A stretch of DNA of 64,000 nt, from contig JANQIH010000295.1 of assembly GCA_028282265.1 (NCBI GenBank), positions 12,254 through 76,253 of the forward strand, given 5' to 3'. Shown one piece after another: positions 1 to 62,846 of this stretch (positions are counted from its first letter, which is position 1; each line of letters begins with the position of its first letter). The notes under the pieces are model-generated. The model saw nothing but the letters and a program-made list of their open reading frames with translations. It searched no databases and was not told the DNA's origin. Both the position numbers and the translations under genes were made by a program. Source of the DNA: Allomuricauda sp. (lineage in GTDB: Bacteria; Bacteroidota; Bacteroidia; Flavobacteriales; Flavobacteriaceae).

Positions 1-193
1 ACGATTCAGAACGTAGCTTCTCAAAGTTGGGCATCTGAACTTGGGGATACAAATCTTTTACTCCCCAACCGTTCATATCATCCACTGAGATAAAAAGTAC
101 ATTGGGTCTTGGTTTTGCAACTTCTTCCTTTTTACAGGACCATAAGCACATAATGGTTATAACAAGGATTACAAACTGACTTAAGAATTTCAT
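1..193 (-). CDS. S1 sulfatase, lipoprotein (5' part only, runs off the window edge; not in the ORF track)
   Basis: Manual translation from ATG at 193: MKFLSQFVILVITIMCLWSCKKEEVAKPRPNVLFISVDDMNGWG...QMPNFEKL. This is a lipobox (WSC) followed by the sulfatase N-terminal PNVLFIxVDD motif; the frame is open to position 1. Confidence 0.85.
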   Translation of the reverse strand, partial: MKFLSQFVILVITIMCLWSCKKEEVAKPRPNVLFISVDDMNGWGVKDLYPQVQMPNFEKLRSES

Positions 194-199
194 TTTCAC

Positions 200-1189
200 T
201 TATTCTTTTAGACTTAGATAATCGCCATGATCTTCCACTTCGAAAAGCTTCGGCCTTTCGTTTGGTCTACTATTGGGTTGGTGCAAACTCATCATTAGCT
301 TGCCATCAAATGTTTTGAACAACATTCCATGCCCTCCATTTTCTTTAAATATCAATTGGTCCAGGTGTTTCCATGGCCCCTTGACACTCCCTGTTTCTGA
401 GATGACCTGGGCAACCTTATAACCGTTCTCGCCAAAACTTGACCAAATCATCAATAATCTACCTGTCTTAGTTCGATATAAAAAGCAGCCATCCGTGATA
501 TAGCCGTAATACTTGTTGTTCATTATTTTGACCTTATCCAAACTAACTACCCAATCCGCTTCCAAAGCAGTAAAAATTGTAGAAGGCGGCCCCACCGTTT
601 TCGACAAGTCATTACTCAGTTGCACCACCTCCATAGTACCGTCCGTATTTTGCGCCCATTCGTGACAGAATATCATATAGGGTACATCATTCTCCACCCA
701 AAGCGTACCATCCAAACTCATCCAATCATTAGGAGTGGTTGGTCCGTTTTCAAAGGGCAGAAATGGTCCTTTGGGACTATCACTCCACAAAATTTGGGTG
801 CCTCGTTTATATTGGGGTGGTTTTCTATCGGATTGTGGTGCCATAACATCCCCTGTAAAAGTTACGAAAAGGTAAAACTTGTCCTTGTACTTGTGAACTT
901 CGGGTGCCCAAACCATTCTTTTTCCCCAATGGTCTTTCGCATGTTGATAGACAGTGGTCGGACCGTACCAGTTTTTTAAATCACTACTGGTAAAAACCTC
1001 TACCCCCTTGATGCTGTCTTTTTCTCCAAGGCGATTATTTGTGGTTCCATAAAGGTAATAGGTCTTTGTAATGGAATCAGGCAATATAAAGGGGTCACGA
1101 ATGCGCAGCTCTTCCAACGATTTCTGGGCACAGATACTCATCCCATAAAGTAATATGCCCAACAGTATTATTCTTTTGTAGAAATCCAT
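200..1189 (-). CDS. Glycoside hydrolase family 43 (five-bladed beta-propeller), signal peptide
   Basis: IRDPF (general base Asp), WAPEVH, LDGTLW and HEW motifs typical of GH43; Sec signal peptide. Confidence 0.85.
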   Translation of the reverse strand: MDFYKRIILLGILLYGMSICAQKSLEELRIRDPFILPDSITKTYYLYGTTNNRLGEKDSIKGVEVFTSSDLKNWYGPTTVYQHAKDHWGKRMVWAPEVHKYKDKFYLFVTFTGDVMAPQSDRKPPQYKRGTQILWSDSPKGPFLPFENGPTTPNDWMSLDGTLWVENDVPYMIFCHEWAQNTDGTMEVVQLSNDLSKTVGPPSTIFTALEADWVVSLDKVKIMNNKYYGYITDGCFLYRTKTGRLLMIWSSFGENGYKVAQVISETGSVKGPWKHLDQLIFKENGGHGMLFKTFDGKLMMSLHQPNSRPNERPKLFEVEDHGDYLSLKE

Positions 1190-1191
1190 TG

Positions 1192-2655
1192 TTAGATTTT
1201 AGTAAGCTTGTAGGCTACGGTACCATGTGGTGGAATCGCGGTAGCCGTAATTTTTTTTGTTTTTTGGCCAAGATGTTCCCCAGACCAGACATCAGTAACT
1301 TGGTAAGTGCCATCCCAATACTCCCAATGAAAGTAAAAATCAAGGTCCATTGGTTCCTCGCCCAAGTTGAAAAAGGCAATATATTTTTCGTTGCCATCTT
1401 TTGATTCAGCCAACCATATCCTATCTGTTCTTCCCATCCCTGAGTACACAAAATTTGCCGCTTGACGATTATGGGTACTGTGCTGGTTTATTCTCAATAG
1501 TTCTTTGTTTTGGAGCCAGGCATAATCCTCGGCTCGGCTTGTGATGGGATCTCCACCCCAAATCAATGGGGATTTTGCGAAAGACCATAGGGTCATTAAA
1601 GTCTTCTTCTCTTCATCATTGAGGTGAGAAAAATGTTCCTTTTTGGTGCTTTCTCCAGGATAATCAGAGAGGCATAAATTTCCGATGGGAATCATATCCA
1701 AATCGGGCCAGGTGCCATCTCCGATATGAGGTTGCCATGCATAGGCCAAATCAAACATATGAACAATCTTTTCCCAATAGTCCCAGAAGTCAATAGAAAT
1801 CCGGTACAGATTGGCATGGGCTTCCATGTGATTGGCATAACTGACAAAGGCTTCTCCACAGGAAAGGCTCAGTACCATGGGACGGCCACATTGGTCAATA
1901 GCATTCCTGATAAGTTCTATTTCCTTTGAATGATAGGTAGGTGCGGAAATATCATCCACTTTTACGAAATCAACACCCCAATTGGCGTACAAGTCAAAAA
2001 GGGAGTTGTAGTATTCTTGTGCCCCGGGTTTTGTTGGGTCAACACCATACATGTTATTGTTCCATTTGCAGGTATCTATTTTCTTGGCAACATCCGCAGC
2101 GTAATATTCAGTGCCTTTGATAGGGGTATTTGCATTTACAGCCTGGCGTGGAATGCCCCACATGATATGAATACCGAATTTCATATTCTTTTGATGCAGA
2201 TAATCCCCAAGAGCTTTAAATCCATCGCCATTTTTTGATGAGGGAAATCGATTTTCGGCTGGGATCAACCGCCCATATTCATCCATATTTAAAACCGGAT
2301 ATAGATTCCCCAATGAATCTTTTTCTTGCTTAACGGTAAAAGTGGTCCACTGGTTAGGATTCCAATTATCGGGCCCTGGATTGAACCAACAGAAATCTAT
2401 GGTTGCCATATCATATCCGTACGGCAATAGTTTTTTCTCCAAAGAATCCACGGATTGCAAAAACTGTTTTTCAGTTACCGCCCCGTGGTAGGCATCATAA
2501 CTGTTCCATCCCAAAGTTGGGGTTTTGGACCATTCTCTAAAATCGGGCTTCCCTTCTTTTTCTAACGAGGATATTTCTTTCTGTTTTTCATTACAACCAC
2601 TGAAAAACAATGAAGAAAATAAAAACAATATTGGTAGAATTCCATCAGTTCTCAT
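1192..2655 (-). CDS. GH27 glycosidase, lipoprotein; beta-L-arabinopyranosidase (Abp)-like
   Basis: TPTLGWNSY, DFVKVDD (nucleophile), YRISIDFWD (acid/base), WPDLDMIP; lipobox FSGC; IDFCW in place of the DD motif of alpha-galactosidases. Confidence 0.88.
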   Translation of the reverse strand: MRTDGILPILFLFSSLFFSGCNEKQKEISSLEKEGKPDFREWSKTPTLGWNSYDAYHGAVTEKQFLQSVDSLEKKLLPYGYDMATIDFCWFNPGPDNWNPNQWTTFTVKQEKDSLGNLYPVLNMDEYGRLIPAENRFPSSKNGDGFKALGDYLHQKNMKFGIHIMWGIPRQAVNANTPIKGTEYYAADVAKKIDTCKWNNNMYGVDPTKPGAQEYYNSLFDLYANWGVDFVKVDDISAPTYHSKEIELIRNAIDQCGRPMVLSLSCGEAFVSYANHMEAHANLYRISIDFWDYWEKIVHMFDLAYAWQPHIGDGTWPDLDMIPIGNLCLSDYPGESTKKEHFSHLNDEEKKTLMTLWSFAKSPLIWGGDPITSRAEDYAWLQNKELLRINQHSTHNRQAANFVYSGMGRTDRIWLAESKDGNEKYIAFFNLGEEPMDLDFYFHWEYWDGTYQVTDVWSGEHLGQKTKKITATAIPPHGTVAYKLTKI

Positions 2656-2755: not shown

Positions 2756-4357
2756 CTACTCTGACTTGCGTGCTGGGAATTCTATTTTTCTAAGCTCTTC
2801 CCCATCACCTGAGAGATAGAAGTTCTCGATATCACGTTCATCTACCCATCTTACATTAAGGGCTTCTCCTTTTTCAAAGCGATTGTAAACTCCGCCCACC
2901 TTATAAAACGGATGCGATTCATACAAATGTCCATACCCAATCATTCGTAAATCGCCTTGCTCTAAAAGCATGTTTTCCATTTCTGTTTCCATACTCTTTT
3001 TCGAGTTTTGAAGTGCAGGAATTTCTGCAAGATTCCTCACACAGTCAGGGTCTTTTGAAATATCATATAATTCTTCAATGGGTCGTTTGCCAAGATTAAG
3101 TTTCCAGTAATCATAAATACCATCTCGACGCTGTTCTATGAGCAATCTTTTTATAGGACTGCTGTCCACATTTAAATACCCTGTTTCCGGATTGCCGGCA
3201 GGCCATCTATCGGGTTCGTAGTTTTTGATATAAAGCATATCATCCTTGTACATTCCCCTAAATGGATAGCCTTCATCATTGGGCCTTCCAGGGTCATGAC
3301 GTTCTTTTCCAATTAGTACATAATCACGTGATGCTTCTATCTGGCCGGACTCTTTAGAAAAGAGAATGTTTCTGAGGCTCGTCCCTGTAGCGGGATGCAT
3401 CCCCGAAGATTGCCAATCAATGCCTGCTATATCCATAATGGTCGGTGCAAGGTCGATAAAACTGATATAGTCATCAACAACTCGTTTTTCCTTTATTTTA
3501 TCCTTCCACATCATGGTCATGGGAATATGGTTGGCATGTTCATATCCGTTGCCCTTAACCCTGGGAAAAGGCATGCCGTGATCTGAAGTTACTATCACCA
3601 AAGTGTTTTCCAATTCACCTGAATCTTCTAAATATTTTAGTATTTGTTGCAGATGTGAATCAGCATATTCCACTTCCAATGCATAATCCAACAAATCGTG
3701 ACGCACTATAGTCGTATCGGGCCAATACTTGGGTACATGCTTGATATCTGAAAGCTTCTTTTTACCCACCTTCTCTCCCGAACCATATTCATACGCCCTG
3801 TGCGGTTCATGAAAACCAACCCAAAAAAACCAAGGTTGACCTTTTGCAACTTCATTTACGAAATAATTGAAATTGGCTGCATAATCAGTAGCGGAAATCT
3901 CACTGGTAGGCACTTCTTTTTGAAATTCTGAGATGCGCTGTCCTATAACTTGTCGCTCTTTTCCATCAGAAGTCAAGGTTACTCCCGGAACATATCCCTT
4001 ACCTGTATACCCTGTGGCATAACCATTTTCAAGCATTACTTCGGGGAACGTCTTGAATTTTGGTGGAAAATAGATATAATGGTTCGCTCCCGCGTCCAGT
4101 TGCCATGAATTTCTTCCTGTTAAAATCGATGCCCTTGATGGCGAACATTTGGCGTTTGGCGTATAGGTTTTATTGAACAAAATTCCTTGCTCCGCGACTG
4201 CATCAAAACCCGGGGAGTCTACATAGCTTTCACCATAAGCGGACATGTCCATCCCCGCATCGTCAAAAATGACAAGTAAAATGTTGGGTTTTTGCTGTTC
4301 TTGGGATATAGCTATAAACCCAAAAAGGAATACACCTAATAGCAGAACTCTTTTCAT
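2756..4357 (-). CDS. S1 sulfatase (Cys-type, CSPSR), N-sulfoglucosamine sulfohydrolase-like
   Basis: PNILLVIFDD, CSPSRASILTG, TSDHGMPFPR, EELYD; signal peptide. Confidence 0.92.
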   Translation of the reverse strand: MKRVLLLGVFLFGFIAISQEQQKPNILLVIFDDAGMDMSAYGESYVDSPGFDAVAEQGILFNKTYTPNAKCSPSRASILTGRNSWQLDAGANHYIYFPPKFKTFPEVMLENGYATGYTGKGYVPGVTLTSDGKERQVIGQRISEFQKEVPTSEISATDYAANFNYFVNEVAKGQPWFFWVGFHEPHRAYEYGSGEKVGKKKLSDIKHVPKYWPDTTIVRHDLLDYALEVEYADSHLQQILKYLEDSGELENTLVIVTSDHGMPFPRVKGNGYEHANHIPMTMMWKDKIKEKRVVDDYISFIDLAPTIMDIAGIDWQSSGMHPATGTSLRNILFSKESGQIEASRDYVLIGKERHDPGRPNDEGYPFRGMYKDDMLYIKNYEPDRWPAGNPETGYLNVDSSPIKRLLIEQRRDGIYDYWKLNLGKRPIEELYDISKDPDCVRNLAEIPALQNSKKSMETEMENMLLEQGDLRMIGYGHLYESHPFYKVGGVYNRFEKGEALNVRWVDERDIENFYLSGDGEELRKIEFPARKSE

Positions 4358-4367
4358 AACAATTCAA

Positions 4368-5858
4368 TTATGAAAATGCGATATCATTCCATCGCAGTTC
4401 TTGTTTGAAGCGGTATAAATCGGTCTTTTCATCAATGAGCAAAAATTCGATTCCAAAAATATCAGCAAGGTCTTCCATTTGTTCTGCACTTATGTTTTCA
4501 CTATACCCTGTGTGATGCGCTCCGCCACCTAAAATCCATGCAGAAGCAGCGATATCAAGATTGGGATGCGGGTTCCACAGTACCCTTGCCACAGGTAGAT
4601 TGGGCATATTATTTTCAATTTCAACGGCATCAACGGTATTGACCAACATTCGAAAACGGTTGCCAACATCAATTATGGAAGCATTCAATGCTTTTCCTGC
4701 TCCGGCATTGAATACCAATCGAGCAGGGTCTTCCTTACCTCCAATACCCAGTGGATGTACCTCTACGCGAACTTCACCTTTTGCAATGGAAGGACAAATT
4801 TCAAGCATATGGGATCCCAAAACGGTACTTTGATTAGGGTCAAAATGGTAGGTGTAATCCTCCATAAAACTATTGCCCCCTTCCAATCCACTGGCCATAA
4901 CTTTCATAGTTCGTACAAGTGCTGCTGTTTTCCAATCTCCCTCGCCACCAAAACCATACCCTTTGGCCATGAGCCGCTGAGTTGCGATTCCGGGTAATTG
5001 TTTCATGCCATGAAGATTTTCAAAAGTATCGGTAAAGGCGGTAAAACCTCCTTCGTTCATAAAGGCTTCCATGCCCAGTTCTATTTGGGCCGAATCACGT
5101 AGGGATTGATGCTTTTCTCCGCCCTTTTTCACATTATCGGCCAGTATATAGCTTGATTCGTATTCTTCCAGCAACCTATTGATCTCACCTTCTGAAACCT
5201 GGTCGATATATTCCACTAAATCACCAACACCATACCCATTTACCTCGTAACCAAACTGAATTTGGGCAGAGACCTTATTGCCTTCGGTAACCGCAACTTG
5301 TCTCATATTATCGCCGATGCGTGCCACTTTCATTTGTTTGGAATCGGCTACAGCACAGGCAACGCGGCACCAATCATCCACTTTTTTGATAACGGCTTCA
5401 TTTTGCCAATGTCCCACAACCACCTTGCGGTTGATTCGCATCCTAGAAGCAATAAATCCAAACTCCCGACCCCCATGGGCCGATTGATTCAGATTCATAA
5501 AGTCCATATCAATAGTATTCCAAGGAATATCCCTGTTAAACTGGGTGTGTAAATGCAAAAATGGTTTGTTAAGTTCCTTTAAACCCGCTATCCACATTTT
5601 TGCCGGTGAGAAAGTATGCATCCATGCGATGATTCCAACGCAATTTTCGTCATTATTGGCGGCCCGTAAGGTTTGGGTAATCTCATCAGGGGTTTTGACG
5701 GTATCCTTCCAAATTACCTTCACCACAATGCTTTTATTGTCGTTATAGGCTTTTGCAATTTCTTTGGAATGCTCGGCTACCTGTTTTAAGGTTTCAGGAC
5801 CATACAAATGTTGACTGCCTGTCACGAACCAAACCTCATATTTTGATAAATCTACCAT
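4368..5858 (-). CDS. araA: L-arabinose isomerase
   Basis: [62 protein letters not shown]; about 496 aa. Confidence 0.97.
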
Positions 5859-5867
5859 ACTAAATTT

Positions 5868-7493
5868 TTAGAGAGATAAAGTACTGAATGAAATCATGAT
5901 GTAAACCACGATAATTACTACAACTATTGATACCAAGATATCCAACCAACCATAACTTGATTTGTTTTCTGCTTTTTGCTCTTCGGTAATAGTACCGAAT
6001 GTCATTCCGGCCAACTTTGCTGGTGCCGGGGCTGGAGACATCAGACTCACAACCACGGCTATGGCGATGCAAATAGCAAAGAAATATGCACCAAAGACCA
6101 GCCAATTAATGTTTGCCAGTGAGTGAATCAAACTACCTTCCGTAAAGTTATTCTTTAGTATTTCCAAGGTCAATTTTGAAAAACCAATGATAAAACCACC
6201 TATTAAAGTGGCCAGTGCCCCTTTTGAATTTATGCGTTTGTAAAAAATGCCCAAAAGGAAAACTGCTGCAATGGGTGGTGAAATGTAGGCCTGTACGTTT
6301 TGCAAGTATTCATAGAGACCATCGGAAAGTCTTGTTATGATAGGAATCCATAGCAATCCTAGAAACACCACAATAAAGGTTGCTATTCGACCCGTTTTTA
6401 CCAATTCTTCTTCTGGTTTCTCGGGTTTTAATTTTTTGTAAATATCCAATGTGAATAGTGTAGAGCATGAATTGAATACCGAAGCCAAAGAACTCATCAA
6501 AGCAGCTAGAAGTCCTGCGGCTACCAATCCCCTTAGACCAGAGGGCAATAGATTACTCATCAAAACGGGAAACGCTTGGTCAGGGCTGTCCCAATCCAAT
6601 CTTCCTTGCATTTTTAATCCCAAAGCGATAACACCTGGAATTAAAAACAAGAACACAGGCATTAATTTCAATAAGGCTCCAAAAATGCTTCCACGCCGAC
6701 CTTCTTTTATATTCTTTGCCGTCAATACACGTTGCACGATGACTTGGTCCGTACACCAATACCAAATTCCCACTACGGTACTGGTGATGAACAAGGGTAG
6801 CCAAGGGTAATCAGGATCTGAGTTGGGACGCCACATGTTGAAATAGTCCTTACCGACCGTCTCTTTTAATTCGCCCCATCCGCCGATGGCATCCAATCCC
6901 ATAAAAGTAAGAACGCCTGCTCCTAAAACCAGAACAATCGCCTGAATCGTCTCGGTATACACCACTGCACGCATTCCGCCCAAGACGGTATAAATCCCTG
7001 TGAGCACAACGGTTGCTACAGCCCCTATCCAAAAAGGAATTCCCAATAAGGCAGAAACCACTACCCCACCGGCATATATGGTAACAGATACTTTGGTCAA
7101 AATATAAGCGACCAAGGAAACAATAGATAGTATCCATCTGGATCGCGCATCAAAACGCTTTTCCAAAAATTCCGGCATGGTGAAAACTCCACTTCGTGCA
7201 TAAAAAGGAAGAAAGACCCAGCCCAACATCAGAACTACCCACGCATGCAGTTCATATATCAACAAAGGCATTTTGTCTCCAGCACCATTACCCGCTAATC
7301 CCACCACATGTTCAGAACCGATATTGGATGCAAAAATGGACGCTCCCACGACAAACCAGCCCACATTTCTGCCAGCTAAAAAATAATCTTCGGTGTCTTT
7401 CTGTTTTTGAAGTATTACCCACCAGGCTACACCAAGCAGTACCAAAAAATAGGCGGCTATTACAATCCAGTCTAAAGAATCCAGTCCTTGCAT
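5868..7493 (-). CDS. Sodium:solute symporter (SGLT-like), probably the L-arabinose importer
   Basis: YFLAGR, ASNIGSEH, FTMPEFLEKRF, YWCTDQVIVQR, AALMSSLAS motifs; about 14 TM segments; lies between araD and araA. Confidence 0.93.
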   Translation of the reverse strand: MQGLDSLDWIVIAAYFLVLLGVAWWVILQKQKDTEDYFLAGRNVGWFVVGASIFASNIGSEHVVGLAGNGAGDKMPLLIYELHAWVVLMLGWVFLPFYARSGVFTMPEFLEKRFDARSRWILSIVSLVAYILTKVSVTIYAGGVVVSALLGIPFWIGAVATVVLTGIYTVLGGMRAVVYTETIQAIVLVLGAGVLTFMGLDAIGGWGELKETVGKDYFNMWRPNSDPDYPWLPLFITSTVVGIWYWCTDQVIVQRVLTAKNIKEGRRGSIFGALLKLMPVFLFLIPGVIALGLKMQGRLDWDSPDQAFPVLMSNLLPSGLRGLVAAGLLAALMSSLASVFNSCSTLFTLDIYKKLKPEKPEEELVKTGRIATFIVVFLGLLWIPIITRLSDGLYEYLQNVQAYISPPIAAVFLLGIFYKRINSKGALATLIGGFIIGFSKLTLEILKNNFTEGSLIHSLANINWLVFGAYFFAICIAIAVVVSLMSPAPAPAKLAGMTFGTITEEQKAENKSSYGWLDILVSIVVVIIVVYIMISFSTLSL

Positions 7494-7542
7494 AATCTTA
7501 TCAGTTTGGTTGTTAATCGGTTTTAAAATTCAGGAAACATAT

Positions 7543-13007: not shown

Positions 13008-13030
13008 GTTGGTTTATTGGAAGGCTTACC

Positions 13031-15218: not shown

Positions 15219-15326
15219 GCCAAAGGATACGGTTCAGTGGATATACCAAGTTTTTGTTTGAAGTATATCCCTTTTGGAAATTGCCCTTTTTCTCTGTCAC
15301 CGCAGAGGAGGACAACCTATAATTTA

Positions 15327-15356
15327 TAAAGCCCATACCTTTCAGCATGGGCTTTA
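15327..15356 (-). terminator. Intrinsic terminator after the FIVAR/LamG gene
   Basis: Perfect 10-bp inverted repeat TAAAGCCCAT / ATGGGCTTTA about 30 nt past the stop at 15384. Confidence 0.75.
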
Positions 15357-48781: not shown

Positions 48782-48786
48782 AATTA

Positions 48787-49818: not shown

Positions 49819-49820
49819 GA

Positions 49821-50945: not shown

Positions 50946-50959
50946 TTGTATCAGTTTTG

Positions 50960-51970: not shown

Positions 51971-51977
51971 AGGTGTA

Positions 51978-54141: not shown

Positions 54142-54274
54142 AAGTTATAGAAATCAAATTATACATAAACATATTAAGTACTTATCAAAGGTACTTGTGC
54201 CATTGACCTTAAAAAGTGTTGTTTTGTTCAAAAAGGGGACAAAGTTGTTGCAAACTATAAAGAGAGATGATTTT

Positions 54275-55447: not shown

Positions 55448-55449
55448 AC

Positions 55450-56616
55450 CTATTCAGTAATGGAGAATTTGTAAATGCAAGTGGAAGTATACATCTCCTC
55501 TGGTTCCAATGTTGTACTGGGAAAATTTTCTTGATTAGGGGAATCGGGAAAATGTTGGGTTTCCAAACAAAATGCACCTCTAAAGTCATATGATTTACCT
55601 CCTTTGCCCTTTTTCCCATTTAAAAAATTGCCCCCGTAAAACTGCAGTCCAGGTTCATCGGTATAAACCTCCATTGTCCTACCAGATTCCGGTTCAATTA
55701 CCTTAGCGGCCAAAACCAAGCCATCATCATTTACAGGATCTTGGTTCAATACAAAGTTATGGTCATAGCCAAGGCCAAACTCCAGTTGCTCGTTCGGTAT
55801 TTCCAAGTCCCGACCAATAGGTTTTGGCGAGATGAAATCGAATGGCGTACCTGCAACCCCAGCAATTTCCCCCGTCGGTATCAGCCCACTATCCACAGGT
55901 GTAAAATGGTCTGCATTAATCATCAAAACATGATCGTTTATCGTACCATTGCCCTGTCCCTTCAAATTAAAAAAAGAGTGGTGGGTAAGGTTGACCACCG
56001 TTTTTTTATCAGTTTTGGCTTTGTAGTTAATTACCAATTCGTTCTCTTCATTCAGCAAGTAATTCACTTTGACGGATAGATTACCAGGATACCCCTCTTC
56101 CCCATCTGGTGAAGTCCTTGAAAAGGTGATGGTATTTTCAGTATGCGAATCCACATCCCAAACCACGCTTTCAAAACCCACATCTCCTCCATGCAAATGG
56201 TTTTCACCATTGTTGGTCGCTAGAGTGTATTCATTTCCATCTAGAGAAAACCTGCCCTTTGCGATTCGGTTACCGTAGCGACCAATGGTGGCCCCAAAAT
56301 ATTTTTCTTGCGCATTTTGGAAGCCTCTCAGGGTATTGAATCCAAGTACAATATCCTCGAATTTTCCATCTCTATCAGGAGTAAATAATGATATCAGCCG
56401 TTGTCCATAATTGGTAAAGGTCACCTCAATACCTTTACTGTTTTTCAACATATAAATACCGACTTTTTTGCCATCAATTATAGTATCGAAATCTACTGCT
56501 TTTGCCATAGTGAGCGTTGAATCTTTAAGTTTTGCCTTTTCAGTATTTTTTGGAGTTTGCTTGCAAGCCAAGGTTGAAAATAGCGTTATCCCAATTAGTA
56601 AAGTGGTTGTTTTCAT
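55450..56616 (-). CDS. galM: Aldose 1-epimerase (mutarotase), lipoprotein-type signal (start reassigned to 56616)
   Basis: GATIGRYGNRI, NHLHGG, EEGYPGNL, NLTHHSFFNL, GYDHNF, GLQFYGGN, FCLETQHFPDSPN; lipobox TLAC. Confidence 0.95.
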   Translation of the reverse strand: MKTTTLLIGITLFSTLACKQTPKNTEKAKLKDSTLTMAKAVDFDTIIDGKKVGIYMLKNSKGIEVTFTNYGQRLISLFTPDRDGKFEDIVLGFNTLRGFQNAQEKYFGATIGRYGNRIAKGRFSLDGNEYTLATNNGENHLHGGDVGFESVVWDVDSHTENTITFSRTSPDGEEGYPGNLSVKVNYLLNEENELVINYKAKTDKKTVVNLTHHSFFNLKGQGNGTINDHVLMINADHFTPVDSGLIPTGEIAGVAGTPFDFISPKPIGRDLEIPNEQLEFGLGYDHNFVLNQDPVNDDGLVLAAKVIEPESGRTMEVYTDEPGLQFYGGNFLNGKKGKGGKSYDFRGAFCLETQHFPDSPNQENFPSTTLEPEEMYTSTCIYKFSITE

Positions 56617-56948
56617 TCTTTTGATTTTGTATTGTAGGAAACCCATGTTTTTTTTCTTTCTTGTCTGGATAAAGCTGTCATTTCGGTGGCCAAGCCTTTA
56701 TCTCCCTGTGATTTCATCCACGAAGCTAACTCTTCCTGCAATCGCTGCTTGGTCGATTCATATTCAGGGTTTTCCGCCAGATTGACCATTTCAAGTGGGT
56801 CGCTCCCAATGTCATACAATTCTTCAGAAGGTCGAAATTTATACTTCGATACCATTACATCTTTATCCTGCTTGCAGGAAGTGAAACAAAATAAAAAAGC
56901 AATTAAAAACCCGTCCAGTATATGAATGTGGTTAAAACGAAATCTCAT
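56613..56948 (-). pseudogene. Internally deleted sulfatase: lipoprotein signal fused in frame to the sulfatase C-terminus
   Basis: MRFRFNHIHILDGFLIAFLFCFTSCKQDKDV joined directly to YKFRPSEELYDIGSDPLEMVNLAENPEY...LASWMKSQGDKG; the whole catalytic core is absent. Confidence 0.75.
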
Positions 56949-57084: not shown

Positions 57085-58638
57085 TTGAAAATTACGACGT
57101 TGAAAAGACAAGTTATACTATTATCTCTTTTTTCTTTTGTTGCCCTCGTCTCCTGTAAAGAGAAAAAAACCGAAACTGAGGTTGAACGAACAATAGCCAA
57201 ACCGAACATCATCTTTTTGTATGTGGATGATTTAGGTTATGCCGATGTAAGTTGTTACGGAGCAAAAGGCGTTGAAACCCCAAATATAGATTTCTTGGCT
57301 AAAAACGGAATCAAATTCACGGACGCCCACAGTTCCGCTGCAACGTGCACTCCTTCTCGATATTCTTTTTTGACCGGGAATTACGCTTTCAGGAATAAGG
57401 CTGTCATTTTACCTGGAGATGCACCACTTTTAATCGACACCGCTACGGTCACGCTGCCGAAAATGTTGAAAAAAGCAGGTTACACAACTGGTGTAGTCGG
57501 CAAATGGCATTTAGGGCTGGGTGTTGGTCAAGTAGACTGGAATACGAAAATCAGTCCGGGGCCCAATGAAATCGGTTTTGACTATAGTTTTTTGTTGCCC
57601 GCAACAGGTGACCGCGTACCTACCGTTTTTGTGGAGAATGGATATGTGGTGGACCTTGAACCTGAAGACAACCTAATGGTGAGTTATGGAGCGCGAATTG
57701 GTGATCGCCCTGTTGGATATGAGCATCCTGAACTCCTAAAACAAAAAGCAGACCGCCAGCATAGCGAAACCATAATCAACGGCGTGAGTCGTATCGGGTA
57801 CATGGCGGGTGGCCAATCTGCGGAATGGATTGATGAGGATTTCCCATACGTCTTCAATAAAAAAGCAACCGATTTTATAACTGCCAACAAGGAAAATCCA
57901 TTCTTTTTGTTCTACTCGTTTCATGATATACATGTACCTCGAATCCCACATGATAATTTTAAGGGAAAAAGCACCATGGGGCCTAGGGGTGATGCCATTG
58001 TCCAAGTCGATTTTGTGGTCGGTGAAATTGTAAAAAGTCTTGAGGAAAATGGTATTCTGGAAAACACACTAATCATTTTTACTAGCGATAATGGTCCTGT
58101 GCTCAATGACGGCTATGAAGACCAAGCTGTTGAATTGATAGGAGAGCACCATCCTTCTGGACCATTCAGGGGAGGTAAGTATAGTATTTATGAAGCCGGA
58201 AGCCGGGTTCCTACCATCACTTATTGGCCTGGAACCATTGAACCCATGGAATCGAATGCTATGATGAATCAGCTGGATATCTATGCTTCTTTGGCAGGAC
58301 ATCTAAATATTGAACTATCAGATGATATCATCGACAGCGAAAACCATTGGAAAGCCTGGATAGGAAAATCAACAAAAGGGCGCAAAGCAATGCTCGAAGA
58401 AGGTTTTACCCTAGCCTACCGAGAAGGCGATTGGAAATACATTCGGCCTTTACCTGAAGGAAAGGAGATTCCCACTTGGATGGAAAATAAAAAAGAAATA
58501 GAATCTGGTTTGATGAAAGTACCACAACTATTCAATTTAAAGGACGATTTGGGTGAGCAAATCAATTTGGCAGAATCCCACCCTGAAAAAATTGAGGAAT
58601 TTGAAAAAAGCCTAAAACAGCTAATAGATAAAAAATGA
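57085..58638 (+). CDS. S1 sulfatase (CTPSR), S1_15-like, lipoprotein (TTG start)
   Basis: PNIIFLYVDDLGY, ATCTPSRYSFLTG, GKWHLGLG, ATGDRVP, DIHVPR, TSDNGP; lipobox LVSC. Confidence 0.92.
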   Translation: MKITTLKRQVILLSLFSFVALVSCKEKKTETEVERTIAKPNIIFLYVDDLGYADVSCYGAKGVETPNIDFLAKNGIKFTDAHSSAATCTPSRYSFLTGNYAFRNKAVILPGDAPLLIDTATVTLPKMLKKAGYTTGVVGKWHLGLGVGQVDWNTKISPGPNEIGFDYSFLLPATGDRVPTVFVENGYVVDLEPEDNLMVSYGARIGDRPVGYEHPELLKQKADRQHSETIINGVSRIGYMAGGQSAEWIDEDFPYVFNKKATDFITANKENPFFLFYSFHDIHVPRIPHDNFKGKSTMGPRGDAIVQVDFVVGEIVKSLEENGILENTLIIFTSDNGPVLNDGYEDQAVELIGEHHPSGPFRGGKYSIYEAGSRVPTITYWPGTIEPMESNAMMNQLDIYASLAGHLNIELSDDIIDSENHWKAWIGKSTKGRKAMLEEGFTLAYREGDWKYIRPLPEGKEIPTWMENKKEIESGLMKVPQLFNLKDDLGEQINLAESHPEKIEEFEKSLKQLIDKK

Positions 58639-59789
58639 AAAAACTGATAATTACAACGGGAATCCTAACCTTTTTGGTTTTATCCTGTAAAGAGACAAAG
58701 CCAAAGGAAACGAAAACTGTTGAGGCTGAAATCATCTCAGATAGAACCGTTTGGGACAGTACACAGGCACATAAGTGGTATGCCGAACAAGAATGGATGG
58801 TGGGAGCCAACTACAATCCGCGTTCAGCTATCAACCAATTGGAAATGTGGCAGGCTGAAACCTTTGACCTTGAAATGATAGATGAAGAACTGGGCTGGGC
58901 CTCAGAAATTGGAATGAACGTGATGCGGGTGTATCTGCATGACCTATTGCACAAAAGCGATTCAATAGGACTTTATAAAAGAATGGACGATTATTTGGGG
59001 GTTGCTGACAAACATGGCATCAAAACTCTGTTTGTTTTCTTTGATTCTTGCTGGAACGATGAACCAAAATTGGGGAAGCAACCTGAGCCCCTGCCACATC
59101 GACATAATTCGGGATGGGTCGAGAGCCCGGGTCATACCGCACTTCGAGATTCTACACAATATCCTCGTTATGAACGTTTCATAAAGGGCACAATTACAAA
59201 GTTTAGGGAGGATGAACGTGTGTTGGGCTGGGACCTATGGAACGAACCTGATAATGGCAAATGGAAAGTCTCCCCAGATAGCATTGCGCGAAGTAAAACT
59301 TCTTACGTGATTCCCCTTTTGGAGAAGAGTTTTGAATGGGCACGTAGCGTAGACCCTAAACAGCCTTTGACCTCAGGTATTTGGGGTGGTGGGGATTGGT
59401 CATCCCACGAAGTTTTGGAACCGCTTCAAAAATTGCAACTAGAGCAGTCTGACATCATCACCTTTCACCATTATTCCAACCCTGAAGATTTTGAGAAACG
59501 AATTATTGAGTTAAAGCGGTACAACAAACCCCTAATCTGTACCGAATATATGGCCCGAACCGCTGGAAGCACCTTTCAAAGTCACCTACCTCTTGGCAAA
59601 AAACACCAAATTGGGATGATCAATTGGGGGTTGGTCGATGGTAAAACCCAAACCAAGTATCCGTGGAAGAGCAATCGTGAAAAGTTTACAAAAGAACCCG
59701 ATGTCTGGTTTCATGAGGTTTTTAGAGCTGATGGCACTCCTTATGACCCTGAGGAAACAAAACTAATCGAGCAACTTACTGGTCTTTAA
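58635..59789 (+). CDS. GH5 glycoside hydrolase, lipoprotein (resembles the GH5_13 group)
   Basis: VGANY.P.SAINQLEMWQ, MRVYLHD, WDLWNEPDN (acid/base), PLICTEYMAR (nucleophile), NWGLVDGKTQT; overlaps the sulfatase stop. Confidence 0.8.
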   Translation: MKKLIITTGILTFLVLSCKETKPKETKTVEAEIISDRTVWDSTQAHKWYAEQEWMVGANYNPRSAINQLEMWQAETFDLEMIDEELGWASEIGMNVMRVYLHDLLHKSDSIGLYKRMDDYLGVADKHGIKTLFVFFDSCWNDEPKLGKQPEPLPHRHNSGWVESPGHTALRDSTQYPRYERFIKGTITKFREDERVLGWDLWNEPDNGKWKVSPDSIARSKTSYVIPLLEKSFEWARSVDPKQPLTSGIWGGGDWSSHEVLEPLQKLQLEQSDIITFHHYSNPEDFEKRIIELKRYNKPLICTEYMARTAGSTFQSHLPLGKKHQIGMINWGLVDGKTQTKYPWKSNREKFTKEPDVWFHEVFRADGTPYDPEETKLIEQLTGL

Positions 59790-59827
59790 CTAAAGAAAGA
59801 ATTCCTTTTTATTAATGCCTTTGTTAA

Positions 59828-61402
59828 TTATTGCAGTTCCTGAGCTCTAGGGTAGTTGTCTAAAATGGCCTCTAGATTTTTTACGACCTTCTTATTCTTT
59901 TTTGCCACGTTTTTAGTTTCTAACGGGTCTTCCTTATAGTCGTATAACTCGTAGGCCACATCATCGTAATTTTTGGTATTCGTCCAGCGTACCATTCGGT
60001 AACGTTGATTTCTGATGGCTTCACCTACGTATCCTCCCTTTTTAAAACAATGGTAGACATGGTCTTTTATCTCCATATCTGGCTTTGAGATTGAGGGTGC
60101 CAAACTAATGCCATCCAACAATTGGATTCCCTTGGGTTGGGGTAATTTCGCCAGATCTACCAAGGTTGGATAGATATCTACCGTTTCCATAAACTGTTGT
60201 GTGGTTGTTTTCTTCTGTGTTATCCCTGGAACCCGCATCAAGAAGGGAATTCGTGTGGGCTGTTCGTAATTGGTATGCTTCGTCCAAATACCATGATCGC
60301 CCAAGTGCCAACCGTGATCACCCCAAAGCAGTACAATGGTGTTCTTATCCAATCCCAAACGTTCCAACTCATTCATGACCTTGCCCAATTGGGCATCCAT
60401 ATAACTGACACTGGCATAGTATCCATGAATAAGGTTACGTTTTAGCTCTTCGGAATACTCCGCATCTTTGTCTTCGGGTACAGGAAAAAATTGTGTGATT
60501 TCACCGCCTCTTTTCTGGGCCATTTTGGGGGAATCTTCAGGGAATTCCTCAAATTCTGGCATTGGAAGCTTTGCTGGATCGTACATATCCCAATATTTCT
60601 TTGGCACGGAAAAAGGTAAATGGGGTCGTGCAAAGCCAACGGCCATCATAAAGGGTTTTTCTCCCTTACCCAATTTTCGCAATCGGTCAATGGCATGGCG
60701 CGCTATTCGGCCATCGGCATAAGCATCGTCAAGTACATCAGGCATTTCCCAGGCCGCACCCCTAGGTAATTGTCTATTTGGAGGTAAATCTTTGATGTAC
60801 TTCCTACTGTTCTCAAAAAAAGCTTCCTCGCGGGTCAGTTCACCTTCCTTACTTTCTGGAACAATATATTCAATGACTTTATCCTTCCGAGATGGCACAC
60901 TCCAAGAAAGTTCGTCATCCCCTTGTCCATGTCCAACATGGTATACTTTTCCCATGGATTCCACATGGTAGCCGTTTTCCTTAAAATACTGGGGAAGCGT
61001 GACGGCTTCTGGCATCGTTTTTCGAAAATTCCTCCCAAAACCATAAATACCAGAACTGGTCGAGCGCATGCCCAACATCAAATTATAGCGGGAAGGTCCA
61101 CATACAGCTTGATTAACATAGGCTCGATTAAATTGTAGTCCACTAGCTGCCAACTTGTCAATATTTGGACTAATGGCGACACCATCTCCATAACTACCCA
61201 GCGTAGGTTTTAAATCATCAACCAGAATCATTAAAATATTTGGCTTGGTCTCTTCATTGCTTTCTTGTCCATACATATTTATGAACGTCGCCAATAAAAA
61301 CAAAAGGCCTGTTAGATATTTCTTAATTTTTTTAGTCTTAAAAGCATTCAAGCCTAATATGACGACCAAACGTAGTACTACAGATACAAATTTATTTTTC
61401 AC
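59828..61402 (-). CDS. S1 sulfatase (CGPSR), iduronate-2-sulfatase/choline-sulfatase-like (S1_7-like)
   Basis: PNILMILVDDL, VCGPSRYNLMLG, GKVYH, GF.RPHLPF, WGDHGWHLGDH, WTKHT, ELYD. Confidence 0.9.
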   Translation of the reverse strand: MKNKFVSVVLRLVVILGLNAFKTKKIKKYLTGLLFLLATFINMYGQESNEETKPNILMILVDDLKPTLGSYGDGVAISPNIDKLAASGLQFNRAYVNQAVCGPSRYNLMLGMRSTSSGIYGFGRNFRKTMPEAVTLPQYFKENGYHVESMGKVYHVGHGQGDDELSWSVPSRKDKVIEYIVPESKEGELTREEAFFENSRKYIKDLPPNRQLPRGAAWEMPDVLDDAYADGRIARHAIDRLRKLGKGEKPFMMAVGFARPHLPFSVPKKYWDMYDPAKLPMPEFEEFPEDSPKMAQKRGGEITQFFPVPEDKDAEYSEELKRNLIHGYYASVSYMDAQLGKVMNELERLGLDKNTIVLLWGDHGWHLGDHGIWTKHTNYEQPTRIPFLMRVPGITQKKTTTQQFMETVDIYPTLVDLAKLPQPKGIQLLDGISLAPSISKPDMEIKDHVYHCFKKGGYVGEAIRNQRYRMVRWTNTKNYDDVAYELYDYKEDPLETKNVAKKNKKVVKNLEAILDNYPRAQELQ

Positions 61403-61412
61403 ATTTATTTAA

Positions 61413-62846
61413 TTAATCAACAAAAACAACATTTTTAGAATACCAGCTTAGAATCGTTTCGGTATATTCTTTTACCCTATCCAAATCTTTACCAGCTAGG
61501 TTAGTTTGTTCCTGTGGGTCGTTCTTTAAGTTATACAATTGAGGCCCAGTACCATCTTCATTAACCAAAAGCTTCCAGTCCCCGTCACGCATTGCGAGCT
61601 TCGGCGTCAAAAAATCAGGATTTCCTGGTGTTGGAACATTGGGAAAGTACCAGAAAATGGGTTTCTGCCTTTGCTGGGGCGTTCCTTTTATTGACTGGTT
61701 CAGCGCAATCCCATCCAATTTTGATGAAATTTTATAAAAATCCGTATTTGTGAAATTCATTATCGTAGGAAATAAGTCCATCACAGCTCCCACTGTGGTG
61801 CTATCTACTTTATTTTCTGGCAAATGACCTTTCCACTGTACTATTAAAGGTTCACGTATGCCTCCTTCATACAGACTCCATTTTCGACCTCGTAGATTGC
61901 CTTGACTTGATGGGGGTTGCCCTCCGTTTTTATAATACCGCGGCCAATCGGTTGGGCCATTATCACTTGACATGATGAATATGGTATTTTCCGTCAGGCC
62001 CATATCTTCTATTCCCTGAATCAATCTTCCTACTTGTATATCCGTCTCCTTTAACACAGCAAAAAACTTGGCTTCTTCTTCATCTCTTGCAATAGCCCTA
62101 AATTCTGAAGTCTGTTCTTCGGTAGGTTTAAAGGGATCATGTACATCACCTGGAAAAAAACTTAAGTAAAAAGGCGTGTCTTTATTTCGCTTAATGAATG
62201 CCAATGAACTATCCACATAAATTTCCGTAATGCGATGCTTATCTGTTCTCATGATATTGCCTTTGCCCAATTTGGCACTCATGTCACTCAAAAAATGGTC
62301 GTTATCCAAGATGCGGTCCCCGATTCCCTCAAAACCGACTAAGGACATATCATAACCATAATCGGTGGGGTAAGGTACTTCATTGATATCCCTTCCTCCG
62401 CCCATGTGCCATTTTCCAACTTGAGCAGTGGCGTAGCCATTTTTCTTCAAAAGTCTGGGCAATAATGGCCCTACGGTATCCAAAAAATTGGCCTGTCGTC
62501 GTTCCTTATTGTTCTTTGTGCTGCCCACTACCCCATGAATCCGTCTCCTAAAAGGATACTGACCAGTTATAAAGGCTACCCTTGAGGGTGAACAAACCGG
62601 AGCATTGCTATAAAATTGAGTGAAACGAATTCCGTTTTTGGCCAAGGCATCAAAATTGGGTGTTTCCATTTTTTGATTGCCATAGCAGCTTAAATCCCCA
62701 TAGCCCAGATCATCAATAAAGATGAAAACCACATTTGGAAGTACTTCCTCTTTTGCAGAAGTGGCCATTTTTACTTCCTTAACTTTGTTCATACAACTAA
62801 GGGCAAAAGCCAAGAAGAGCAGGATTCCAAAAATAGTTTTTCCCAT
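61413..62846 (-). CDS. S1 sulfatase (CSPSR), lipoprotein (start reassigned to 62846)
   Basis: PNVVFIFIDDLGYGD, CSPSRVAFITG, GKWHMGG, SSDNGP, YEGGIREP; lipobox ALSC. Confidence 0.92.
   Translation of the reverse strand: MGKTIFGILLFLAFALSCMNKVKEVKMATSAKEEVLPNVVFIFIDDLGYGDLSCYGNQKMETPNFDALAKNGIRFTQFYSNAPVCSPSRVAFITGQYPFRRRIHGVVGSTKNNKERRQANFLDTVGPLLPRLLKKNGYATAQVGKWHMGGGRDINEVPYPTDYGYDMSLVGFEGIGDRILDNDHFLSDMSAKLGKGNIMRTDKHRITEIYVDSSLAFIKRNKDTPFYLSFFPGDVHDPFKPTEEQTSEFRAIARDEEEAKFFAVLKETDIQVGRLIQGIEDMGLTENTIFIMSSDNGPTDWPRYYKNGGQPPSSQGNLRGRKWSLYEGGIREPLIVQWKGHLPENKVDSTTVGAVMDLFPTIMNFTNTDFYKISSKLDGIALNQSIKGTPQQRQKPIFWYFPNVPTPGNPDFLTPKLAMRDGDWKLLVNEDGTGPQLYNLKNDPQEQTNLAGKDLDRVKEYTETILSWYSKNVVFVD

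Follow-up and report, generated by a model that had tools for sequence, protein, structure and literature searches.

The closest described relatives of the locus considered here belong to Bacteroides (Phocaeicola) plebeius, in which two polysaccharide utilisation loci (PULs), PUL13 and PUL5, are induced by sulfated arabinogalactan of Codium fragile (Munoz-Munoz et al. 2021, PMC8406133). The PUL13/PUL5 substrates are arabinogalactan proteins (AGPs) of Codium fragile and of red wine, and the S1_8 sulfatase of PUL13 is active on Codium AGP and is required before a GH43_24 galactanase acts (PMC8406133). The subject of this report is a 64,000-nucleotide stretch of flavobacterial DNA (GenBank assembly GCA_028282265.1, contig JANQIH010000295.1, positions 12,254 to 76,253; the window, below), which carries a 63-kb island of sulfatase, glycosidase and sugar-catabolic genes with a single SusC/SusD pair. 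We hold with moderate confidence that this island degrades a heavily and heterogeneously sulfated glycan of D-galactose and beta-linked L-arabinopyranose (Arap), for which the sulfated arabinopyranans and galactans of green algae are the best fit.

The likeness to B. plebeius is one of logic and of some families. Its system is also SusCD-based, and its three candidate PULs together are reported to encode GH2, GH27, GH43 and GH145, with S1 sulfatases in PUL13 besides. Its substrate is a sulfated green-algal glycan with arabinose and galactose, as proposed for the window, and periplasmic desulfation before the glycosidases follows the same logic. An S1_8 sulfatase is involved; in the window, the sulfatase g03 is S1_8-like by its closest solved relatives. 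However, PUL13 has two sulfatases whereas the window has eight. B. plebeius also relies on GH43_24, GH145 and GH105, none of which is recognisable in the window (GH43_24 being judged on the GH43 proteins g01 and g30). What the window adds is a GH28-like protein, an SSF transporter with a cytoplasmic GH27, an S1_20 sulfatase, three unclassified clan GH-A proteins, and the araBAD and Leloir genes.

A second set of comparable systems comprises the marine sulfated-galactan PULs so far worked out: those for porphyran, agar and carrageenan, the last with the lambda-carrageenan cascade of Pseudoalteromonas. These use the same alternation of exo-sulfatases (S1_8, S1_15, S1_19 and others) and exo-glycosidases, and in them GH2 enzymes and alpha-galactosidases acting on sulfated galactan feed the Leloir genes, which is also the logic suggested for the window. 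In contrast to these PULs, the window has no GH16, GH82, GH150, GH110, GH117, GH86 or GH127/129 and no anhydrogalactose genes; arabinose catabolism and GH27s of the type of the beta-L-arabinopyranosidase Abp are found instead. An earlier note on this DNA, made from the sequence alone, stated that no fully worked-out PUL was known for such a substrate. For beta-L-arabinopyranan itself this stands, none having been found in the searched literature, but PUL13 is a partly characterised precedent (PMC8406133). That study was also the only one to emerge when the same literature was searched for marine PULs already characterised on Codium polysaccharides or on sulfated arabinan or arabinopyranan. The locus is a sulfatase-rich SusCD PUL, an already known kind, with several candidate new enzyme specificities.

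The window contains 36 open reading frames (ORFs) of at least 150 amino acids, almost gap-free, and all were scanned against Pfam. Adjacent genes encode a SusC-like TonB-dependent transporter and a SusD-like lipoprotein, and there is a hybrid two-component system (HTCS) with all its domains; GH2, GH43, GH27, GH28-like and clan GH-A genes flank them. The complete L-arabinose (araBAD) and galactose (galMKTE) pathways described in the earlier note are borne out, and catabolic genes for other sugars, among them uronate, rhamnose and fucose, were not found in these scans. Pfam and structure matches likewise confirm its two Abp-like GH27s, GH2, three GH43s, formylglycine-generating enzyme (FGE), one SusCD pair and one HTCS, and its GH28-like beta-helix protein scores 34.5 bits against a Pfam cut-off of 22.9. 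Two entries in its inventory needed correction: the S1 sulfatases number eight rather than nine, and no protein reaches Pfam GH5, where a GH5 had been listed. A GH30-like and two unclassified clan GH-A enzymes are present as it said (g12, with a GH30 fold; g13 and g33), but all three clan GH-A proteins are without a family assignment. There are three SSF transporters (5868-7493, g09 and g24). Neither tRNAs nor Rfam families were found in the window, and no RNA sequencing runs holding its sequence were found.

Three lines of evidence converge on the proposed substrate. Because the only catabolic pathways in the window are those for L-arabinose and galactose, these are the likely sugars; because eight mutually divergent Cys-type sulfatases accompany an FGE, the target is probably sulfated; and because both GH27s fall in the Abp clade with their catalytic Asp residues kept and a specificity residue other than Asp, the arabinose would be released from beta-L-arabinopyranosides. 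By sequence and synteny, a sulfated target containing beta-L-arabinopyranose and galactose is well supported. From there we infer a green-algal origin (Bryopsidales, Cladophorales) as the best-matching known chemistry. The earlier note had it that algae of these two orders make sulfated polysaccharides with beta-L-arabinopyranose as well as beta-D-galactose backbones, which is correct (PMC7550628).

The arabinose side of the argument centres on the arabinopyranoside (ara) module, whose genes are as follows.

200-1189, minus strand: g01, GH43, last gene of the module (Pfam GH43, E 6e-32)
1192-2655, minus strand: g02, secreted lipoprotein GH27 of the Abp clade (4NX0, E 3e-104; 3CC1, E 8e-105)
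2756-4357, minus strand: g03, S1 sulfatase, S1_8-like (Pfam Sulfatase, E 1e-45; CSPSR motif)
4368-5858, minus strand: araA (Pfam AraA_N, AraA_central and Arabinose_Iso_C, E 1e-65 to 1e-86)
5868-7493, minus strand: SSF transporter (Pfam SSF)
7543-8247, minus strand: araD (Pfam Aldolase_II)
8244-9914, minus strand: araB (Pfam FGGY)
9925-11250, minus strand: g08, Abp-type GH27, cytoplasmic, no signal peptide (4NX0, E 2e-125)
11247-13007, minus strand: g09, SSF transporter (Pfam SSF, E 1e-60)
13031-14569, minus strand: g10, lipoprotein, divergent GH28-like beta-helix hydrolase

For both g02 and g08 the best solved relative is the beta-L-arabinopyranosidase Abp (4NX0). The alignment with g08 runs from end to end (residues 11-441 against 22-441), and that with g02, which has the lipobox FSGC, covers residues 40-485 against 19-441. 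Canonical alpha-galactosidases match the two proteins at E 1e-20 to 1e-33, which is 70-90 orders of magnitude worse. The GH27 nucleophile is kept, with KADDV and KVDDI aligning with KVDDI of Abp (the same Asp is mutated to Ala in 4NXK), and so is the acid/base, with SADFWD and SIDFWD aligning with TDDFWD. Mutagenesis has established that Ile67 of Abp, as opposed to the Asp of alpha-galactosidases, sets the specificity for Arap versus galactose (PMC4598101). At this position Leu is found in g08 and all five orthologues checked, and Phe in g02 (TIDFCWF) and its Flavobacterium flevense orthologue. The residue is neither Asp nor the canonical Ile; a bulky hydrophobic Leu or Phe should also exclude the C6 hydroxymethyl group. 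That g02 and g08 are beta-L-arabinopyranosidases is a strong prediction.

Compared with the described enzymes of GH27 'group VI', Abp of Geobacillus stearothermophilus T6 and CpArap27 of Chitinophaga pinensis, g08 and g02 show likeness over their full length, with the loop insertions particular to the clade, both catalytic Asp residues, and a hydrophobic specificity residue, although this is Leu or Phe instead of the Ile of Abp. The gene for g08, like that for Abp, lies among genes for the use of arabinose. Abp is an intracellular enzyme and g08 a predicted cytoplasmic one, a further likeness. What sets g02 and g08 apart is their sulfatase-rich, marine context.

The lipoprotein g10 is more unusual. 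Only 13 clusters among 1.84 billion representative proteins are homologous to it at E<=1e-30; the search shows a gap from E-68 to E-36, below which remote GH28-like proteins follow, and a metagenome-wide scan for relatives yielded four loci only, which inform on gene context but not on habitat. In 31 sequences of the g10 family N302-N303-D304-G305-x-H307 and N323-D324-D325 are invariant. In a profile alignment with plant polygalacturonases NNDG-x-H falls on NTDG and NDD on GDDC/GDD, which together form the catalytic Asp triad of GH28. Two other hallmarks are absent from the family in this alignment. The GHG motif (polygalacturonase CGPGHGISIG) has no counterpart, and in place of RIK (NGVRIKSW) stands NGGDIMLTW, with D374 and I375 invariant and M376 conserved to at least 90%. 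In GH28 enzymes the galacturonate carboxylate is bound by the Arg and Lys of RIK. Compared with polygalacturonases and rhamnogalacturonases, then, g10 shares the right-handed beta-helix fold, the three catalytic Asp motifs and a Pfam score above threshold, but lacks GHG and RIK. Genes for uronate or pectin use are never among its neighbours, which are instead GH27, a sugar symporter, araBAD and sulfatases.

What might such an enzyme cut? The configuration of beta-L-Arap at C1-C4 matches that of alpha-D-Galp (PMC7550628), so a 4-linked beta-L-arabinopyranan is a carboxylate-free stereochemical analogue of polygalacturonan. From its motifs, g10 is a candidate inverting hydrolase of beta-L-arabinopyranosidic linkages. 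One homologue (P0146, 517 aa; JGI/ENA/Logan) has, in its precomputed Pfam annotation, GH28 alongside Melibiase_C, which is the C-terminal domain of GH27. Either a fusion or a merged gene call could lie behind this link between the two families.

The ara module is an operon of wider occurrence. The unit of g10, a g09-type SSF transporter and a signal-less GH27 recurs in six other genomes or contigs: a close relative of the window (L065), Polaribacter sp. M15 (L066), F. flevense (L067), L068, genome GCA_043557195.1 (L070) and a marine contig (L074). In these six the g09 homologue adjoining the g10 homologue is 77-93% identical to g09, and in L076 it is 57% identical; g09 itself is a predicted importer of Arap-containing oligosaccharides. 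The unit is followed by araB-araD-SSF(-araA) in five of the six loci, with the order araA/SSF/araD/araB conserved in L065-L068 and L070, and transketolase and transaldolase genes precede araB, araD, SSF and araA in some. L067 and L068 have an AraR/NrtR-type regulator with the operon; in L066, L070 and L074 the gene directly upstream of it encodes an HTCS. In F. flevense it continues with a g02-type secreted GH27 and then a g03-type sulfatase (61% identical to g03); the g03 orthologue of L065 (85%) comes after araA. Distant g10 homologues lie beside sulfatases in Pelagicoccus (L069) and in L075, and beside GH27, sulfatase and GH43 genes in L077. Because of these recurrent neighbours, g10 is tied to L-arabinopyranosides and to sulfate. 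In L070 a tyrosine integrase gene (Arm-DNA-bind_5, Phage_int_SAM_5, Phage_integrase; 3325-4608) lies directly upstream of the HTCS and the ara operon, which hints that the module can be mobile. As for g01, its best solved relative is 5C0P, an 'endo-arabinase' (E 1e-61).

The sulfate side of the argument is carried by the eight S1 sulfatases, all of the Cys type with a CxPxR motif and less than 40% identical to one another. Besides g03 these are the following.

21715-23193, minus strand: g14, S1_20-type sulfatase (7ANA, E 8e-124; 7AN1, E 2e-114)
35629-37134, plus strand: g19, sulfatase (Pfam Sulfatase)
37124-38596, plus strand: g20, sulfatase (Pfam Sulfatase)
38550-40481, plus strand: g21, long sulfatase (643 aa; the C-terminal extension, about 270 aa, has no Pfam match)
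57085-58638, plus strand: g32, sulfatase (Pfam Sulfatase, E 4e-49)
59828-61402, minus strand: g34, sulfatase (Pfam Sulfatase, E 2e-47)
61413-62918, minus strand: g35, sulfatase (Pfam Sulfatase, E 3e-50)

For g14 the assignment is the clearest. Its closest structures, 7ANA and 7AN1, are S1_20 enzymes of Bacteroides thetaiotaomicron (the pairing of codes with enzymes is inferred), and CQRLGHNYYP at residues 168-177 is the exact S1_20 signature, the Gal-selective His included. This motif and activity on galactose 3-sulfate have been described for S1_20 enzymes such as BT1636 and BT1622 (bioRxiv 10.1101/2020.11.20.392076). The predicted role of g14 is that of an exo-sulfatase acting on galacto-configured sugars that carry 3-O-sulfate. 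The solved structures closest to g03 are the S1_8A/B galactose-2-O-sulfatases, at E 2e-35 only (structures: bioRxiv 10.1101/2025.01.09.632246).

Next to the ara module lies a core of 32.4 kb (14678-47120, g11 to g23), which comprises the S1_20 sulfatase and the three sulfatases g19 to g21 listed above together with a putative surface glycan-binding protein, the GH30-fold and clan GH-A enzymes, SusD, SusC, HTCS, GH2, a GH43 and a protein of the type IX secretion system (T9SS).

15384-16856, minus strand: g11, lipoprotein with FIVAR and LamG domains (Laminin_G_3, E 6e-25; N-terminus ...SNSCEDDEG)
17198-18544, plus strand: g12, lipoprotein glycosidase of GH30 fold, clan GH-A (AlphaFold2 model, pLDDT 89, and Foldseek)
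19043-21637, minus strand: g13, unclassified clan GH-A glycosidase with Fn3, 864 aa, hallmark of the core
23239-24792, minus strand: SusD (Pfam SusD_RagB, SusD-like_3)
24803-27979, minus strand: SusC (Plug, CarbopepD_reg_2, TonB barrel)
28163-32341, plus strand: HTCS (Reg_prop, Y_Y_Y, HisKA, HATPase_c, Response_reg, HTH_18)
32411-35632, plus strand: GH2 beta-galactosidase, LacZ-type (all five LacZ domains; GH2_C, E 1e-96)
40481-41515, plus strand: g22, GH43, 344 aa (Pfam GH43)
41653-46683, plus strand: g23, ELWxxDGT-repeat protein, 1676 aa (TIGR04534, 8 repeats, E 3e-84; Por_Secre_tail)

The hallmark g13 has only Fn3 matches in Pfam and in the PDB sequence search. Its model (AlphaFold2, pLDDT 89) is closest to the folds of GH51, GH79 and GH44, in which a (beta/alpha)8 barrel is combined with a beta-sandwich, with template modelling (TM) scores of 0.6-0.69 and 10-16% identity, and N164-E165-P166 and T285-E286-F287 are invariant across 36 sequences. 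Its 142 homologues come almost all from marine Bacteroidota, and 61 genomic loci were examined. About half of these have a g14 homologue (approximately 55-73% identity), which lies directly upstream of g13 in every locus mapped in detail. An HTCS (44-48% identity), a GH2 and g20/g21-type sulfatases are also common at g13 loci, galK/galT are sometimes present, and accessory families include GH97 (15 loci), GH29 (five) and GH116 (four). Independent evidence that the clan GH-A enzyme shares its substrate with a sulfatase is a homologue in Neolewinella marina (Lewinella marina; P0120, 1326 aa; see also L042) that is fused to an S1 sulfatase domain.

An example of the GH97 architecture is found in Polaribacter sp. 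Hel1_85 (L017, 14157-16076), where g13, sulfatase, GH97, sulfatase, a 788-aa beta-helix protein, sulfatase and GH43 follow one another. Loci of this type have several T9SS-secreted proteins with F5/8-type-C or Glyco_hydro_cc domains upstream. GH97 includes both beta-L-arabinopyranosidases and alpha-galactosidases (PMC8056906), so GH97 may substitute for GH27 at g13 loci.

For g12 the fold and the sequence give different answers. The model has a GH30 fold, a (beta/alpha)8 barrel joined to a side beta-domain: its best Foldseek matches overall lie at TM 0.6-0.73, those to GH30_7 and GH30_8 xylanases being at TM 0.70-0.73 with 15-18% identity, and it also resembles glucocerebrosidase. Sequence membership of GH30 was not found. 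There is no Pfam GH30 match, GH59 scores 22.9 bits against a 27-bit cut-off, NCBIfam XynC scores 16.6 bits, and a phmmer search of the PDB gave no match. E191 (NEF) and E284 (TEP), the predicted acid/base and nucleophile on strands 4 and 7, are invariant among homologues, and with its acidic lipoprotein N-terminus g12 is a candidate surface enzyme. Its homologues adjoin g13 in L002, L011 and L041. At the ends of the core, g11 is a predicted surface glycan-binding protein, 79% identical to the orthologue that adjoins g12 in a metagenome-assembled genome (MAG) of Croceivirga, and g23 is a T9SS-secreted protein and not an evident enzyme; apart from its TIGR04534 match, NCBIfam gave nothing useful for the unknown proteins of the window. 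The g21 and g22 genes overlap, the last base of the g21 stop codon (40481) being the first base of the g22 start codon. Their homologues lie next to each other in the Croceivirga MAG (75% and 76% identical) and in a gut Bacteroides (33% and 37%) as well, so the two may form a functional pair.

That gut locus is an observation of its own. On two contigs of gut-type Bacteroides sp. (L072 and L073, 460-21470; one sample has a DDBJ SAMD accession), a PUL under ECF/anti-sigma control has the block of g12, g20 and g21-g22 in common with the marine core. It runs SusCD, GH127, sulfatase, DUF4971 with a g12-like protein (48%), sulfatase (44% to g20), a second pair of DUF4971 and g12-like protein, GH2, sulfatase, sulfatase (33% to g21), GH43 (37% to g22) and sulfatase, and some of its protein clusters have hundreds of members. 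It might be a gut counterpart for a dietary sulfated glycan, perhaps of seaweed.

How could these parts work together? SusD and the acidic-lipobox lipoprotein g11 would bind the polymer at the cell surface, and g12, possibly with g23, would make oligosaccharides for import by SusC, with the HTCS sensing a product. In the periplasm the eight S1 sulfatases, matured by FGE, would remove sulfate, g14 acting on 3-O-sulfated galacto-configured sugars and g03 on 2-O-sulfate. The desulfated chains could then be trimmed by GH2, the three GH43s, g13, g33 and the secreted GH27 g02, and g10 would cut beta-L-Arap linkages into short oligosaccharides. This role is proposed for g10 because these linkages are stereochemically equivalent to those of alpha-D-Gal/GalA, the Asp triad is kept and RIK is absent. 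The symporter g09 would carry the oligosaccharides into the cytoplasm, where the GH27 g08 would release L-arabinose. Finally, AraA, AraB and AraD would consume arabinose and GalM, GalK, GalT and GalE galactose, with two further SSF transporters available.

It is clear that the locus is a composite island of three modules (ara, core and gal), which occur separately in relatives. The third is the galactose module (47120-56646, minus strand, Pfam assignments), and beyond it lies g33.

47120-48832, minus strand: g24, SSF transporter
48787-49818, minus strand: galE, intact, 343 aa
49821-50945, minus strand: FGE
about 50972-51970, minus strand: LacI-family regulator, with an in-frame TGA at 51425-51427
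51978-53024, minus strand: galT
53005-54141, minus strand: galK
54275-55447, minus strand: g30, GH43
55450-56646, minus strand: galM, periplasmic, lipoprotein signal
58635-59789, plus strand: g33, lipoprotein with clan GH-A motifs (NEP in WDLWNEPDNG, CTEY in LICTEYMA); sub-threshold Pfam matches only (GH10 0.0024, GH2_C 0.047)

In the close relative L065 the ara-module proteins are 82-95% and the gal-module proteins 69-92% identical to those of the window, and the order is galM-galK-galT-lacI-FGE-galE-SSF(g24) followed by g10-SSF-GH27-araB-araD-SSF-araA-sulfatase. The order of the galactose module is the same in both except for g30, and in L065 the g24 orthologue directly precedes that of g10. 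DNA homology between the two ends at 14677 and restarts at 47121, so the 32.4 kb of the core are extra relative to L065. The converse is seen in the Croceivirga sp. MAG, the closest genome in the species collection (g13 82%, SusCD 88% identity). There, one contig carries g11, g12, g23-g22-g21-g19..., HTCS and SusC-SusD-g14-g13-g35-X-g34-galM-GH43(g30)-galK-galT, with the orthologues of g34 and g35, 80% and 73% identical, placed after g13; upstream of g11 are unrelated housekeeping genes, and there is no ara module there.

An independent Logan contig from the same sequencing run spans the ara/core junction (12500-19500) with no differences, so that this junction is not peculiar to the window's own assembly. 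Over the second junction (about 47120) runs one Logan contig (45500-51503); it differs from the window at three sites, and no difference is listed close to the junction. The first junction has a stretch of about 700 bp (14678-15383) with no convincing gene, only ORFs of 72-99 aa without database matches. The 72-aa ORF (15000-15218) was considered as a remnant of a tyrosine recombinase and rejected: it has no Pfam, no PHROG and no tblastn match to the L070 integrase.

Several observations weigh against the sulfated green-algal arabinopyranan/galactan as the substrate of the whole island. GH27, araBAD and g10 were found within 10 kb of g13 in none of the 61 g13 loci, and more than 60 other species have the core enzyme pair g13 and g14 with no GH27 or araBAD close by. 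Elsewhere the ara operon comes with an HTCS or AraR of its own, neither of which is in the ara module of the window. The core's own substrate may therefore contain no arabinose, and a rearrangement that reflects no functional tie may have set the core beside the ara module. The sequence was obtained from a coral metagenome rather than from an alga. No recognisable enzyme was found in the window for the pyruvate ketals typical of Codium galactans, and g01 and g30, the two GH43s compared with solved structures, are unlike GH43_24 exo-beta-1,3-galactanases, no GH43_24 structure being matched. Codium galactans are reported to be sulfated at C4 and C6 (PMC7550628), whereas S1_20 predicts galactose 3-sulfate. 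The 'dedicated pathway' of the earlier note is affected accordingly. Its sulfated Arap/Gal target fits the genes, but the mosaic make-up weakens the idea of one dedicated PUL.

Among the alternatives, the one that survives best, though we consider it unlikely, is a sulfated type II arabinogalactan (AGP-like) from microalgae, Symbiodiniaceae, seagrass or other sources. In such a glycan beta-L-Arap would do no more than cap chains or form part of short side chains (such as Arap-(1,3)-Ara), and g10 and g08 would process released disaccharides. The characterised Abp-type GH27s (GsAbp and CpArap27) do act on arabinogalactan side chains (PMC4598101), and the AGP PULs of B. plebeius combine GH2, GH27, GH43 and sulfatases (PMC8406133). 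An enriched potential for AGP degradation is reported for Flavobacteriaceae associated with dinoflagellates and diatoms (PMC12961874), and it was a coral holobiont that yielded the window. One g10 homologue belongs to a strain named 'Flavobacterium sp. ARAG 55.4', a name that by itself suggests an arabinogalactan isolate. The gut Bacteroides locus, with its g12 homologues in two copies and its g20 and g21-g22 homologues, adds a GH127, a family that includes beta-L-arabinofuranosidases. However, the hallmarks of AGP degradation are not recognisable in the window, neither GH43_24 (as judged on g01 and g30) nor a GH16 endo-galactanase nor the GH105/GH145/PL27 enzymes for Rha-GlcA caps, and a uronate pathway is lacking there. 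A beta-helix enzyme, a transporter and a cytoplasmic arabinopyranosidase would also be a heavy investment for a minor capping sugar, and Maribacter growing on larch arabinogalactan used no GH27 or GH28 (proteomics; PMC11036162).

What if the core and the ara module have nothing to do with each other? In this scenario two unrelated systems would stand side by side, the core acting on an arabinose-free, sulfated, galactose-rich glycan and the ara module forming an independent regulon for arabinopyranosides of another source, the two having been brought together by a rearrangement. The absence of the core from L065, where ara and gal are contiguous, and of an adjacent ara module from the core and gal genes of the Croceivirga MAG would be as expected, as would the lack of ara-module genes at the 61 g13 loci and the separate regulators of the ara operon elsewhere. 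Other observations make this scenario distinctly unlikely. The g03 sulfatase accompanies the ara module in three lineages and distant g10 homologues lie beside sulfatases, which implies that the arabinopyranoside substrate itself is sulfated. The ara module of the window lacks a dedicated sensor, and the HTCS and the LacI-family protein are the sole regulators present. A quarter of the g13 loci carry GH97, so that an activity equivalent to GH27 may be a common accessory of the core. Finally, both modules are kept in one genome by freshwater F. flevense (L011 and L067), of which the type strain, DSM 1076, is cultured. Even if the modules are unrelated, the locus documents the assembly of a PUL by module shuffling between close relatives.

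The coral origin raises a third alternative, which is very unlikely: that the substrate is the arabinose-rich sulfated mucus or skeletal-matrix glycoprotein of the coral host. The window is fully (100%) contained in a 2022 coral-metagenome run, at a depth of about 9-10x, and its host is a coral-associated flavobacterium, a relative of Croceivirga. Arabinose makes up 49-65% of the mucus and skeletal organic matrix of Acropora, and galactose takes second place in the skeletal matrix (PMC11575353, PMC4043741), and coral exudates enrich Flavobacteriales (PMC11575353). However, the arabinose of gorgonian glycoprotein is the D enantiomer (PMC8700520), whereas L-arabinose is the sugar on which AraA, AraB, AraD and beta-L-arabinopyranosidases work. 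The window also has no enzymes or pathways for mannose, GlcNAc and fucose, in which coral mucus abounds. D-arabinose is reportedly found in Acropora formosa too, as Meikle and co-workers are said to have described in 1987. The modules are moreover present in planktonic, sediment and freshwater bacteria without a coral link (F. flevense, Lacibacter, Daejeonella). It is because of the enantiomer, the absent mannose, GlcNAc and fucose genes and this distribution beyond corals that the coral glycans were downgraded. The freshwater carriers are of interest in another way, since freshwater Cladophora also makes sulfated arabinans (PMC7550628).

PULs for carrageenan, agar, porphyran, ulvan, fucoidan and pectin were rejected because their signature families are absent from the window in the Pfam scans (GH16, GH82, GH150, GH110, GH117, GH86, PL24/25/28/40, GH29/95/107/168, PL1/9/10 and GH105), as are pathway genes for uronate, rhamnose and fucose.

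Returning to the green-algal sulfated arabinopyranans and galactans, a bolder and tentative proposal can be made. Perhaps the g10 family is the first glycoside hydrolase family for (sulfated) beta-L-arabinopyranan and the g13/S1_20 pair founds a new GH family, the two together opening a first enzymatic route into the sulfated arabinans and galactans that siphonous and siphonocladous green algae make. On this proposal, which we regard as possible but doubtful, g10 would have evolved from GH28 by loss of RIK and GHG and would work with the symporter and the cytoplasmic GH27 as an 'arabinopyranan operon', and the substrate of the g13/S1_20 pair would be a sulfated galactan widespread among marine Bacteroidota. 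Coral skeletons house Ostreobium, a member of the Bryopsidales, and the coral source could include this skeleton-boring alga. No data exist on the wall polysaccharides of Ostreobineae (PMC7550628).

The substrate matters because the matrix of Bryopsidales and Cladophorales (Codium, Caulerpa, Cladophora, Chaetomorpha), which are abundant and often bloom-forming or invasive, has sulfated beta-L-arabinopyranans and pyruvylated sulfated galactans as its main polysaccharides. The locus supplies candidates for their degradation: a GH28-like enzyme without uronate-binding residues, secreted and cytoplasmic Abp-type GH27s, an unclassified clan GH-A family known from more than 60 species, a GH30-fold family that gut Bacteroides also have, and S1_20 and S1_8-like sulfatases. 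If the hypothesis is true, these would be new CAZy and SulfAtlas specificities and would explain a route of green-algal carbon turnover, perhaps including carbon cycling within the coral holobiont. F. flevense DSM 1076, as a cultured carrier of both modules, makes the hypothesis directly testable.

Some minor features of the galactose module and of the island's ends can be added. The LacI-family regulator is 66% identical over 334 aa to its intact L065 orthologue, and its decay into a pseudogene was considered and rejected: where the window has the in-frame TGA, a Logan contig assembled independently from the same run has TGT (Cys), as does the orthologue. The TGA is probably a strain polymorphism or an assembly error. 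This Logan contig has a second difference at 51451, with a contig break nearby. In L065 it is galE (6490-7511) that is split, into two ORFs of 163 and 173 aa, which may reflect a frameshift or a sequencing error in the Logan contig.

The left-hand end of the island is not reached inside the window. Its right-hand end is probably marked by an unrelated gene beyond the last sulfatase.

63267-63989: gene for a DUF2807 (putative adhesin head) lipoprotein

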